IMG/VR virus record: IMGVR_UViG_2695420745_000009
Direction: 5' to 3' (one strand)
Source: a virus
Taxonomy: Duplodnaviria > Heunggongvirae > Uroviricota > Caudoviricetes
Length of the DNA: 8,236 bases
Positions within the stretch are counted from its first letter, which is position 1; every line of letters starts with the position of its first letter. A model generated the notes under the pieces. The model saw only the letters and a program-made list of their open reading frames with translations, had not been told where the DNA came from and made no database searches. The position numbers and the translations under genes were made by a program. Shown here piece after piece: positions 2,519 to 8,005 of the stretch.

Positions 2519-3577
2519 TCATCCGTTCTGGCTGACTAAATCCTGTACTTCCCGAACCGTCTGCTCAAAACGTTCAGTCTCCAGCTCAACGCCAATTGCA
2601 CGACGCCCGAGCGCCAGTGCCGCTTTCACTGTCGAACCCAACCCCATGAAAAAATCTGCAATCAGGTCACCCGGACGACTGCTAGCGCTGATTATCTGCT
2701 GCAGCATTTCTGCCGGTTTTTCGCACGGATGTTTCCCGGGATAGAACTGCACCGGTTTATGCGTCCACACATCGGTATACGGCACCTGCACCGTCACGCC
2801 AAAATACCGCCGCAGATGTTTATATTCACTCAGCAGCTCCGCATACTGCCGGTTCAGTGAGGTATACGTATCCACCAGCTGGTGGTGGAGCTTTTCCAGT
2901 TCACCACGCCGATGCTTCTCTTCTGCCACCCGGGCAAACAGCGCCTGTAATTTCAGATAATCGCTTTCATTCGGCAACTGCCACTGACCGGCACTGAACC
3001 AGTGCGACACCATGTTTTTCTTTCCTGTGGCATCTGCAATCTGTTTTGCCGTTATCCCCAGGGCAGCTCGCGCATCACGAAAGTAAGAAATCAGCGGGGC
3101 CATCACATGCTGTTTCAGTGCACTGCCCTTCGCCGCATACCCGGCATCTTTCGGACGATACGGCCCCTGATAATGTTCCGCGAACAGAATGCGCTCTGTG
3201 GCGGGGAAATACGCCCGCAGGCTTTCCTTGTTGCATCCGTTCCAGCGTCCGGACGGCTTCGCCCAGATAATATGGTTCAGCACACTGAAGCGTTCACGCA
3301 TCATGATTTCGATATCAGATGCCAGGCGATGACCACAGAACAGGTAAAGACTTCCGGCAGGTTTCAGCACCCGCCAGAACTGCGCCAGACACTGGTCCAG
3401 CCACTTCAGGTAATCATCGTCGCCCTTCCACTGGTTATCCCAGCCCTCAGGCTTCACTTTAAAGTACGGCGGGTCCGTGACTATCAGGTCAACAGAATTT
3501 TCGGGTAACGACCGGATAAATTCCAGGCAGTCGGCGTTGATTAACTCACAACTGGATATTTTTACAGTATTAAGCAT
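2519..3577 (-). CDS. DNA methyltransferase, beta-class (N6-adenine or N4-cytosine), 352 aa, no adjacent restriction endonuclease
   Basis: Motif IV DPPY near the N-terminus (VTDPPYF) and motif I FxGxG near the C-terminus (DFFMGLGST). That order defines the beta permutation of amino-MTases. Position between the Q-like gene and the tRNAs matches phage-borne methylases of Stx-type prophages. Confidence 0.85.
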   Translation of the reverse strand: MLNTVKISSCELINADCLEFIRSLPENSVDLIVTDPPYFKVKPEGWDNQWKGDDDYLKWLDQCLAQFWRVLKPAGSLYLFCGHRLASDIEIMMRERFSVLNHIIWAKPSGRWNGCNKESLRAYFPATERILFAEHYQGPYRPKDAGYAAKGSALKQHVMAPLISYFRDARAALGITAKQIADATGKKNMVSHWFSAGQWQLPNESDYLKLQALFARVAEEKHRRGELEKLHHQLVDTYTSLNRQYAELLSEYKHLRRYFGVTVQVPYTDVWTHKPVQFYPGKHPCEKPAEMLQQIISASSRPGDLIADFFMGLGSTVKAALALGRRAIGVELETERFEQTVREVQDLVSQNG

Positions 3578-3669
3578 GGATCATTAAGCCTGTCTCTGAT
3601 AGGCTCATTCTGCTTTTGCGCAAAGCAGTGGGCCTGAGGTTTGCTTGTGAACCCAACGCATGAGCAGAT

Positions 3670-3700
3670 GGCTGGTGGGTGTTAGGGGCACCCACCAGCC
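3670..3700. promoter_or_regulatory. Perfect 12-bp inverted repeat with 7-nt spacer (ggctggtgggtg-ttagggg-cacccaccagcc), about 95 nt upstream of the methyltransferase start
   Basis: Arms 3670-3681 and 3689-3700 are exact reverse complements. No U-tract follows on either strand, so it is not a canonical terminator. Candidate operator, RNA processing site or structural element. Confidence 0.45.
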
Positions 3701-3713
3701 GCCCATTTACCAC

Positions 3714-3741
3714 AAATAAAAAAGCCTTCACTGCGGAAGGC
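3714..3741 (-). terminator. Rho-independent terminator (candidate tR'-like) between the Q-like gene and the methyltransferase
   Basis: Minus strand reads GCCTTC-CGCAGT-GAAGGC followed by TTTTTTATTTGTG. It lies roughly 200 nt downstream of the N-masked stretch where a Q-dependent late promoter would be expected. Confidence 0.6.
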
Positions 3742-4099
3742 GTCTGTAANNNNNNNNNNNNNNNNNNNNNNNNNNNNNNNNNNNNNNNNNNNNNNNNNCC
3801 CCCCCCCGCCATAACCAGCTGGGTCAGTATTAACTGGCAGCGTTCGCGTGAAAGGTAAGTATTCTGCGCTATCTCCCCGACTGTCGCCGGTTCGGTAACG
3901 CTTNNNNNNNNNNNNNNNNNNNNNNNNNNNNNNNNNNNNNNNNNNNNNNNNNNNNNNNNNNNNNNNNNNNNNNNNNNNNNNNNNNNNNNNNNNNNNNNNN
4001 NNNNNNNGACACACCAATAACTCTTGTCGAAAAAGCCAGCAAGCTGAAAGACAGGTATTCACCGCCACCAGCGCGTTTACTGTACTGACGCGATTTCAG

Positions 4100-6940: not shown

Positions 6941-6970
6941 AAATAAAAACAAAAACCCGCCGAAGCGGGT
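6941..6970 (-). terminator. Strong rho-independent terminator downstream of the hok toxin gene
   Basis: Minus strand reads ACCCGC-TTCG-GCGGGT (6-bp GC-rich stem with a UUCG tetraloop) followed by TTTTGTTTTTATTT. Confidence 0.75.
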
Positions 6971-7039
6971 TAAGTGTGGGTGCATTGAGGATGCCTGACC
7001 CATCAGAGGTGGCGAGGGATTTCTCCCCCGCCTGGTCTC

Positions 7040-7195
7040 TTACTCCTCAGGTTCGTAAGCTGTGAAGACAGCGACCTCCGTCTGGCCGGTTCGAATTCGT
7101 ACCTCGCAGAGGTCTTTCCTCGTTACCAGTGCCGTCACTATGACGGTTAAACAGATGACGATCAGGGCGATTAACATCGCCTTTTGCTGCTTCAT
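7040..7195 (-). CDS. hokD: Hok/Gef-family type I membrane toxin, 51 aa, matching HokD (RelF) as remembered
   Basis: Translation MKQQKAMLIALIVICLTVIVTALVTRKDLCEVRIRTGQTEVAVFTAYEPEE has the Hok-family transmembrane helix and C-terminal motif. AAGGAG Shine-Dalgarno 8-13 nt before the ATG at 7195. An in-frame upstream ATG at 7252 is probably not the real start. Confidence 0.9.
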   Translation of the reverse strand: MKQQKAMLIALIVICLTVIVTALVTRKDLCEVRIRTGQTEVAVFTAYEPEE

Positions 7196-7406
7196 AGCCT
7201 GCTTCTCCTTGCCTTTCGGCACGTAAGAGGCTAACCTAGATTTGCCGTTCATAGATTGAGCCTCAGATTAATGTTAAGCGTCTTGCCGGACGCGTAATGT
7301 TAACTGGGGCTTTTCTCTATCTGCCTTTTGGTGTTCATGCCTGAGACAGATAGCCTCAAGCACCCGCTGCAATTCTACTTAACTCTCCTTTTCCCGCAAA
7401 CCGTTT

Positions 7407-7490
7407 TTATCCCCAGCGGCAAATCGAATACACCACCAGCGCCACCGCCATCGCAATTCCTACCGTTGTTAATGCTTCAGGCCAGGTCAT
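7407..7490 (-). CDS. Candidate small hydrophobic peptide, 27 aa ([27 protein letters not shown]), translationally coupled to the upstream gene
   Basis: ATG overlaps the TGA of ORF-C (ATGA at 7487-7490); GGAGG lies 9 nt upstream. About 17 consecutive hydrophobic residues, then RWG. Absent from the ORF track because it is under the length cutoff. Coding status unproven. Confidence 0.35.
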
Positions 7491-7831
7491 CGTAAAATAT
7501 CCTCCACGCTTATCAGTCCGTTCCGCTCCAGATAACTCATCGCCTTATCCGGTAATTTGCAGTCTGGCTTCGCTTTCCTCAGTTGCCAGGTTAACTGCTT
7601 TACCAGCATGGTTAACTCATCGACCAGACGCTGATATCCCACTGGTTTGTATTCATGCAATTTACCGGCTGGCTCTGCTGCCAGCGATACCAGTGCGATT
7701 TCCAGAACAGCAATATCCATCTTATATGTGCGGATGATGTCATGGTCGATTGTGCCCGGTATGCACAGTCTCTGTGCTTCAATAGTCTCCTCTGCGTGAG
7801 CTATTAACTGCTCTCTGGTAAAAGTCGTCAT
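7487..7831 (-). CDS. Hypothetical protein ORF-C, 114 aa, paralogous at its N-terminus to ORF-B
   Basis: ATG at 7831 preceded by AAGGGG; ATG overlaps the stop of ORF-B (ATGA). Shares MTTxTxEx at the start and [10 protein letters not shown] (versus [10 protein letters not shown]) with ORF-B. Confidence 0.6.
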
Positions 7832-7995
7832 GCCGTAGCCCCTTCTTGATATTTTTCAAACCAGAACACAACCGGCTCTGCTTCCAGCGATGCCAGCGCA
7901 ATCCGTGCCAGTTCCATTTGTTCACCACGGGTAAGCCCGTTTTCAAGCGGGTTTTTAATGAACAATTCAATACGTTCTTTGGTAATAGTGGTCAT
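7828..7995 (-). CDS. Hypothetical protein ORF-B, 55 aa ([55 protein letters not shown]), short paralog of ORF-C
   Basis: Hand-translated from the minus strand; absent from the ORF track (below cutoff). Consensus AAGGAG 6 nt before the ATG at 7995; its stop overlaps the ORF-C start. Confidence 0.55.
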
Positions 7996-8005
7996 GTGTT
8001 ACTCC

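Follow-up and report, generated by a model that had tools for sequence, protein, structure and literature searches.

The window analysed here is the whole of an 8,236-nucleotide (nt) stretch of DNA from a virus of the Caudoviricetes (IMG/VR record IMGVR_UViG_2695420745_000009). Directly upstream of the hok leader it contains a small open reading frame (sORF) for a hydrophobic peptide of 27 amino acids (aa), which a preliminary description, made from the letters alone, had pointed out together with a GGAGG ribosome-binding site and an ATGA overlap with the preceding gene, ORF-C. All three were confirmed: the sORF lies at 7407..7490 on the minus strand, its stop (7407) being 41 nt upstream of the predicted 5' end of the hok mRNA and outside the leader; the GGAGG lies at 7505-7501, and the overlap at 7490-7487. 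Taken as a whole, the analysis makes it probable, though well short of certain, that the sORF is a genuine gene coupled in translation to the one before it, that it encodes a single-pass membrane microprotein, and that it forms an independent accessory module of lambdoid phages. The features of the sORF and its upstream partner are as follows.

7407..7490, minus strand: sORF, ATG start and 27 codons plus TAA, predicted single-pass membrane microprotein (from the listing of open reading frames (ORFs), conservation and the predicted helix)
7501..7505, minus strand: Shine-Dalgarno sequence GGAGG, 10 nt ahead of the sORF ATG, within the last codons of the upstream ORF
7487..7490, minus strand: ATGA start/stop overlap between the sORF and the upstream 114-aa ORF (from the ORF listing)
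7487..7831, minus strand: upstream 114-aa ORF ("ORF-C"), phrog_660, a PHROG of unknown function; one of at least nine unrelated upstream partners of the sORF

Translation Signals and Evidence for Protein Coding

A start/stop overlap is usual across the family, either as ATGA or as TGATG, in which the upstream stop overlaps the ATG by one base. In 108 of 138 copies the ATGA-overlapping frame ran uninterrupted over 60 or more upstream codons, and TGATG was present in most of the others; a Shine-Dalgarno-like motif between -18 and -4 was found in all 138. With the ATGA overlap and the Shine-Dalgarno sequence in the last codons of the upstream gene, translation of the sORF would be coupled to that gene's stop codon.

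By tblastn the peptide was recovered, with 55-96% identity, from 95 of 50,697 phage records. Two kinds of sample were used to study its variation. The pattern-based sample came from a scan of IMG/VR DNA that fixed parts of codons 1-6 and 25-26 and allowed a gap of 49-61 nt; because the codon pattern biases this sample, flank-anchored samples were obtained by scans on flanking DNA only. Ratios of nonsynonymous to synonymous variation (pN/pS) were calculated pairwise and ignore shared ancestry.

Across homologous prophages the frame was kept and synonymous variation exceeded nonsynonymous variation, which is the outcome that the preliminary description had looked for in proposing a check of frame conservation. 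Exactly 27 codons (the 55-nt gap) were present in 129 of the 132 copies from the pattern-based scan, and the length variants were all in frame, at 24 aa, 25 aa and 29-35 aa. All fetched loci together gave 58 DNA variants and 37 peptide variants, 35 of the peptides being intact 27-mers. A stop codon directly followed codon 27 in each of the 56 unique full-length variants (53 TAA and 3 TGA), with varied sequences downstream. Mean column entropy in the unconstrained interior reached 1.00 at the third codon position, against 0.56 at the first and 0.38 at the second, and the excess of variation at third positions was significant in a permutation test (p<5e-5, codons 7-24). Synonymous changes were seen at C24 (TGC/TGT), R25 (CGC/CGT/CGA/CGG) and G27 (GGA/GGG/GGT). 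In the pattern-based set pN/pS was 0.42 in the sORF frame and 0.66 and 1.63 in the shifted sense frames. The flank-anchored samples gave, for codons 2-27, a pN/pS of 0.28 in the hok context and 0.38 with both contexts combined, and 1.26 and 1.52 in the two other sense frames.

Antisense ORFs over the sORF are annotated as hypothetical in some records, such as AHZ95239.1 of POCJ13 (positions 1006-1134 of our locus L006) and ORF C38 of Stx2 II (positions 301-1050 of locus L004). Since pN/pS across the family was 2.19 in the frame of a 55-aa antisense ORF (7328..7495, plus strand), such annotations are probably spurious.

In the flank-anchored samples, 122 of 124 copies between DUF551 and DUF4222 genes were intact, as were 103 of 113 copies between ORF-C and hok, with one further in-frame 29-aa variant, giving 225 of 237 in total. 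Frame-disrupting variation in close homologs, which the preliminary description had named as evidence against the ORF, thus does occur, in about 5% of copies (12 of 237); the disrupted counts for hok and the 114-aa ORF are comparable. Of the same 101 loci, 8 had a disrupted sORF (93 intact), 6 a disrupted hok (95 intact) and 12 a disrupted 114-aa ORF (89 intact), so that the loss rate per copy of the sORF is similar to that of its neighbours. Five of the disrupted copies in the hok context carry one common 1-nt deletion. Judged by this variation, the sORF looks like an accessory gene that can be lost but is subject to moderate purifying selection, and not like a chance ORF.

Properties of the Predicted Peptide

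The single transmembrane stretch of the preliminary description was borne out by both hydropathy and structure prediction. The Kyte-Doolittle mean of residues 6-24 was 2.16, with a range of 2.16-2.20 for the core, and AlphaFold2 returned one helix spanning residues 3-26 (W3-W26) with a predicted local distance difference test score (pLDDT) of 85.8. About 21 hydrophobic residues are bracketed by Trp-Pro (W3-P4) on the N-terminal side and Arg-Trp (R25-W26) on the C-terminal side. The helix is without charged or polar residues in most variants, an acidic residue (E/D5) standing at one side of it and R25 at the other. The interior residues G11, A15, A17, Y21, I23 and C24 are nearly invariant, and W3, P4 and R25 vary occasionally in the flank-anchored sample. 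The peptide thus has the size and single helix of a small membrane microprotein (at most 50 aa), together with purifying selection and translation signals.

By the positive-inside rule the peptide would insert into the inner membrane with its N-terminus (E5) out and R25 in. A face of small residues (G11, A13, A15, A17 and S22) may then pack on itself or on a host or phage membrane protein during lytic development, and the peptide would not be an acute killer. We offer this helix-packing, non-toxic mode of action tentatively, as a possibility that is open to considerable doubt.

Nothing in Pfam, NCBIfam, PHROGs or PADLOC matched the peptide above threshold, and three sORF variants gave no match to PF01848 (Hok/Gef) at E<=1; the ORFs next to the sORF belong to PHROGs of unknown function. 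The small residues at positions 11, 13, 15 and 17 resemble a glycine zipper, with scores of 14.5 bits (E=0.03) and 13.4 bits against PF19029 (DUF883_C; cut-off 27), a resemblance that is compositional only.

A GCGATG/GCGGTG hexamer is unstable in the middle of the helix; its expansion produces (AM)n, with variants reading ...GIAMAMAMAMAMAVAL... The length of the helix is polymorphic, ranging from 25 to 35 residues (variants P0043, P0047, P0052 and P0053, one copy in the hok context, and locus L077).

Distribution and Modularity

In complete E. coli genomes, a 116-nt query matched 3111 places in 1637 of 5426 genomes (approximately 30%), with up to seven per genome and 164 on plasmids. One of these plasmids, the 96-kb pO26_EH2252_2, carries phage-type ead/Ea22 and DUF551 genes. 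Copies were also found in the Stx (Shiga toxin) phages 933W, Sp5 and VT1-Sakai.

The boundaries of homology coincide with those of the sORF. When positions 8000..7000 of the window were compared by megablast, homology to 933W, Sp5 and other Stx phages started exactly at the sORF ATG and continued through hok. In ArgO145-type phages it covered the 114-aa ORF and the sORF and stopped 1 nt past the sORF stop, where unrelated DNA with a terminator follows. Several of the 60 E. coli matches listed were exactly the ORF (query 21-104), or began at its ATG, or finished at its stop. The upstream partners fell into nine clusters by the last 90 residues of their proteins (DUF551/Ea22-like, ORF-C, 933W L0139 and others). 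Sixteen downstream contexts were distinguished by the first 200 nt. Among them were DUF4222-xis-int, hok, further small genes and several terminators that come straight after the stop; hok followed in 49 of 127 copies (39%). In packed operons the annotated genes leave a gap of about 84 nt, which the sORF exactly fills.

At five loci (L002, from ArgO145, and L119, L026, L126 and L131) an intrinsic terminator, in the form of a GC-rich hairpin with a T run, begins within a few bases of the sORF stop, indicating that the sORF is the last cistron of the operon in those phages.

On the evidence of these sequence contexts, the sORF is an independent, widely spread accessory module and not part of the hok/sok locus, and that it is both a gene and an independent module appears highly probable. 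The module very probably recombines at its own start and stop codons among lambda-like phages and phage-plasmids of Escherichia and Shigella. It is located either where the ea region ends, ahead of DUF4222-xis-int or of a terminator, or in the nin region, ahead of hok-DUF968-RusA-Q, as in the window.

Searches beyond these phages returned few relatives. In GTDB, with one genome per species, the sORF was found in Escherichia and Shigella, beyond probable contaminants and two chance matches; the protein collection held one Salmonella entry. A copy identical to the 933W sORF lies on a 431-bp contig of Xanthomonas pisi (L136), and a copy matching an IMG/VR variant lies on a 369-bp contig of Acinetobacter idrijaensis (L140); both are most likely assembly contamination. 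A scan with a relaxed CCV-proline pattern added only close relatives. A HMMER scan of 1.84 billion representatives gave 21 matches, all of them variants of the sORF family, and matched no longer protein of known function. Neither lambda (20-46 kb) nor the left arm of the K-12 Rac prophage yielded a homolog (hmmsearch E>0.3), the other K-12 prophages lying outside this search; lambda orf28 encodes an unrelated acidic peptide.

An intact copy with 78% identity, preceded by an Ea22-like gene, is present in Escherichia phage Av-05 (120.9 kb, Vequintavirinae; positions 1001-1084 of locus L007). The records of vB_EcoM_TH18, 24-2-1 and 19-1-2, like Av-05 large myoviruses classed outside the lambdoid group, hold copies too. 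These copies reflect either lateral transfer of the module or mixed assemblies.

Relationship to hok and to Type I Toxins

The window represents the nin-type region of a lambdoid, Stx-phage-like prophage, with all genes on the minus strand. The features that follow the sORF are listed below.

7372..7399, minus strand: inferred hok promoter, with a -35-like TTGCGG at 7399-7394 and a -10 TAGAAT at 7377-7372, read by eye relative to the Rfam 5' end at 7365
7190..7365, minus strand: hok mRNA 5' region and sok target, Rfam RF01794 (112.4 bits, E=1.3e-26, model positions 1-157); adjoins the sORF and lies outside the sORF gene
7040..7252, minus strand: mok, containing the nested hok; neighbouring module
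7040..7195, minus strand: hok, PF01848 (E=1e-23, 82.9 bits), hokD in the RefSeq annotation
6954..6971, minus strand: stem of the intrinsic terminator with which the hok transcript ends (from a terminator scan)

The inferred hok promoter begins 7 nt past the sORF stop and was not flagged by a consensus promoter scan. In the terminator scan, the interval from the sORF stop (7407) to the hok 5' end (7365) was free of terminators. On the 3' side of hok the order is DUF968, RusA, antiterminator Q, DNA methylase, tRNA-Met(CAU) and two tRNA-Arg(UCU). The three tRNA genes lie within 2028-2478 on the minus strand, past the methylase and Q, and are typical of Stx-type phages. The Salmonella small RNA IsrK gave a sub-threshold Rfam match at 6950-7031 on the minus strand (25.7 bits, gathering score 50, E=0.0025), in a stretch that overlaps both the terminator and the 3' untranslated region of hok. 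Masked runs of N at about 120-270, 930-1060, 2005-2030 and 3570-4040 break the ORF calls there.

The preliminary description had likened the peptide to type I toxins such as TisB, ShoB or DinQ and had raised a link with Hok expression. The former likeness was found to rest on size and hydrophobicity only. The sORF does encode a small hydrophobic peptide with one helix, as type I toxins do, and is of similar size to Hok/Gef (PF01848), TisB, ShoB and DinQ; it differs from the membrane type I toxins in lacking a model match and an antisense RNA or leader of its own, and in that a clone containing it is non-toxic. Neither strand of 7407-7490 matched an Rfam model at E<=1, and sok was matched over 7190-7365 only. 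No promoter-like site was found on the opposite strand over the sORF, a search that an undescribed antisense RNA could escape. The sORF also lacks a promoter with a long structured leader, its ATG overlapping the upstream stop and its Shine-Dalgarno sequence being exposed inside the upstream ORF. Membership of the type I toxin class is therefore unsupported, there being no antitoxin RNA, no own leader and no toxin-family match; a membrane-active role is possible. A dedicated link with Hok was likewise not supported, as hok follows the minority of copies given above and ArgO145-type phages keep the sORF without hok.

HokW and SokW of Sp5 have been described as toxin and antitoxin, respectively (Takada et al. 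2021, PMC8621323). Upon RecA-dependent induction of Sp5, SokW RNA disappeared and HokW appeared; HokW sped up lysis, and deletion of the hokW-sokW locus halved phage release. The authors favoured a block of sokW transcription and did not settle on the step of induction responsible for the SokW loss. On arabinose, cells with their plasmid pBAD18-hokW-sokW grew normally unless the sok promoter was mutated. Primer YO-432 for this construct starts with GAATCA-ATGACCTGGCCTGAAGC, 6 nt before the sORF ATG, and the insert reads GAATCA-ATGACCTGGCC... (the 933W/Sp5 copy of the sORF occupies positions 1501-1584 of locus L001), indicating that the plasmid contains the whole sORF. The clone argues weakly against acute toxicity of the sORF, weakly because translation of the sORF in it is unverified. 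In the deletion primer YO-351 the upstream homology arm corresponds to the beginning of the hok mRNA, which places the sORF outside the deleted segment. This shows that the reported hokW-sokW phenotypes belong to hok/sok.

Sakai prophage Sp6 has the same layout as the window. Between its sORF copy and hok lies another tiny one-helix gene, ECs_5710 (34 aa, MSDDISLAMEGALAVIAVVGVYCLVVFLMDRLGN; sORF copy at 3344-3427 and ECs_5710 at 3463-3567 of locus L144, from NC_002695.2). ECs_5710 is the same gene as the XECs145 reported by Hücker et al. 2017 and has since entered the RefSeq annotation; it occupies the same spot as the sORF. In contrast to the sORF, to which it shows no detectable similarity, it has its own Shine-Dalgarno sequence after a 35-nt spacer and no ATGA overlap. 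XECs145 was highly translated by ribosome profiling in that study, with a translatome value of 346 reads per kilobase per million (RPKM) and a coverage of 0.99 in the first-listed growth condition. The over-extended call of XECs145 there covers the last ~22 nt of the Sp6 sORF copy, and as a sign of sORF translation this coverage is only suggestive. The same GGGTAAAAACG junction flanks the inserted segment with ECs_5710 on either side, a pattern that insertion through recombination at this short repeat would leave.

Comparison with Known Small Membrane Proteins

KdpF, AcrZ, MgrB, MgtS and CydX of E. coli bind larger membrane proteins and function via helix-helix contacts. Like the sORF peptide, they have fewer than 50 residues, one hydrophobic helix and no signal peptide, and are often missed in annotation; there is no sequence relationship between them (KdpF model 12.5 bits against a cut-off of 26.85). 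Unlike these proteins, the sORF is phage-borne, multi-copy and translationally coupled at operon ends. PfsE of the Pseudomonas filamentous phage Pf4 is a small inner-membrane protein that binds PilC. It also binds and inhibits PqsA (review PMC11323111). PfsE and the sORF peptide are alike in being very small and phage-encoded and in that binding to a host protein is proposed, whereas PfsE is unrelated in sequence and comes from another type of phage and another host.

Annotation Status

The preliminary description had called the ORF unannotated, which holds for RefSeq/PGAP and for every phage record opened. Elsewhere it does not hold throughout: a few submitters have annotated the exact peptide, under the names "prophage protein", "bacteriophage protein" or "hypothetical protein" (e.g., CAL6704654.1, AOM45384.1 and EIL24003.1), and a 45-aa version extended at the N-terminus is RefSeq WP_250221393.1. 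The peptide strings were absent from the searchable full-text literature and from the accessible portions of the supplements of Hücker et al. 2017 and "The Cryptic Bacterial Microproteome". Hücker et al. 2017 carried out ribosome profiling in strain Sakai on ORFs of at least 30 aa only, so the 27-aa sORF was excluded by design. Being shorter than the length limits of gene callers and of at least one ribosome-profiling study is likely one reason why the sORF was overlooked.

Two other origins of the peptide were considered and rejected. Clusters at 90% identity group it with DUF551 proteins of 121 and 185 aa, as though it were part of a DUF551 fusion; those proteins end in ...PPQEVNQ and do not contain the peptide. 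A programmed frameshift adding the helix to the upstream protein was rejected by inspection, as there is no conserved slippery heptamer and the junction differs by context.

Weighing of Alternative Explanations

The peptide might be a membrane-damaging toxin, resembling a type I toxin or a holin or assisting Hok, that would oligomerise via its alternating small residues and depolarise the inner membrane after induction, in addition to the early lysis that Hok assists. A size and hydrophobicity like those of TisB, ShoB and DinQ would fit such a role, as would the G11-x-A13-x-A15-x-A17 pattern with its sub-threshold glycine-zipper match (PF19029), the 39% of copies directly before hok, and the induction of HokW in Sp5, where it speeds lysis (PMC8621323). 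We nevertheless consider a toxin unlikely. Neither an antisense RNA family nor an opposite-strand promoter was found over the sORF, which is coupled to the genes before it and has no leader or promoter of its own; models of toxin and defence families gave no match; 61% of copies are without hok; a genome may hold up to seven copies; the helix is without charged or polar residues in most variants; and pBAD18-hokW-sokW carries the sORF and is non-toxic unless the sok promoter is mutated. It could also be the act of translation that matters and not the peptide, with ribosomes kept on the early-operon transcript to ~40 nt before hok and read-through colliding with the convergent sok promoter. Because the sORF and hok share one orientation and no terminator separates 7407 from 7365, early-operon read-through into hok with interference at the sok promoter is a reasonable idea, and it depends on transcription, not on the peptide. 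It would account for the RecA-dependent disappearance of SokW, for which Takada et al. favoured a transcription block and left the step open, and the co-orientation is shared by the window, 933W, Stx2 II and Sakai Sp6. However, a spacer needs neither the sequence nor the exact length that are kept (pN/pS 0.28-0.42; G11, A15, Y21, I23 and C24 nearly invariant), and the 61% of copies not beside hok include some directly before a terminator. Moreover, polymerase modified by lambda N reads through without the help of ribosomes. A role for translation alone is more doubtful still than that of a toxin.

Least probable of all, and in our view very unlikely, is a fortuitous ORF, the 84 bases being a conserved non-coding junction, a recombination linker or the upstream part of the hok promoter. 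Mosaic breakpoints do cluster at the ends of the sORF, its most DNA-conserved stretch (codons 21-27) abuts the hok promoter, and some copies are disrupted. Such DNA would not be expected to show the three-base periodicity of variation (p<5e-5), the synonymous changes at C24, R25 and G27, length variants that are all multiples of three, a stop right after codon 27 despite differing downstream DNA, a Shine-Dalgarno sequence and start/stop overlap recreated with unrelated upstream genes, and the same conservation where no hok follows.

Several observations weigh against a coupled gene for a partner-binding membrane microprotein. Values of pN/pS of 0.3-0.4 denote, as far as such ratios go, moderate constraint only. 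One antisense frame also scored low (0.37), as expected from wobble positions that coincide with those of the sense frame; the only ORF of at least 20 aa on the plus strand across the sORF, the 55-aa one, lies in another frame. TAG occurs at codon 3 in 6 of ~149 copies, including phages POCJ13 and phiSTEC1589, and the 10 of 113 copies in the hok context that are not intact comprise the 29-aa in-frame expansion and otherwise copies with a frameshift, a nonsense codon or a changed start codon. The frequency of disruption per codon is 2.5-3 times higher in the sORF than in hok or the 114-aa ORF, a comparison based on few independent events, five of the eight disrupted sORF copies having a single deletion in common. 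The helical periodicity of conservation was not significant (p=0.39), and a single binding face is not demonstrated. Translation of the sORF is predicted from sequence, and presumed in the Takada construct, the only ribosome-profiling study checked being that limited to ORFs of at least 30 aa. Finally, the family is narrow (Escherichia and Shigella, with a rare Salmonella copy) and had no relative of known function in our searches.

Implications

A coupled membrane microprotein gene of this kind means that about 30% of complete E. coli genomes carry a gene missing from RefSeq and from the curated family libraries searched. Annotating the sORF closes an 84-nt "gap" in the maps of many prophages, speaks against the antisense ORFs placed over it in some records, and flags an extra gene in published hokW-sokW constructs.

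A further proposal, which we hold to be improbable in its full form, is that the sORF founds a family of phage microproteins that is new and acts on a specific target in the membrane, and, separately, that its position as last cistron abutting hok possibly routes read-through that silences the sok promoter. Examples of such targets would be a host transporter or receptor, blocked to exclude superinfecting phages, or the action of Hok or a holin, which the peptide would tune. If true, silencing of sok by read-through would explain the loss of SokW RNA on Sp5 induction. If the sORF only conducts read-through into hok, it would still provide a testable explanation for the release of Hok on prophage induction; if a membrane target exists, the peptide would be a compact, easily synthesised tool and would represent a new accessory function of Stx phages.

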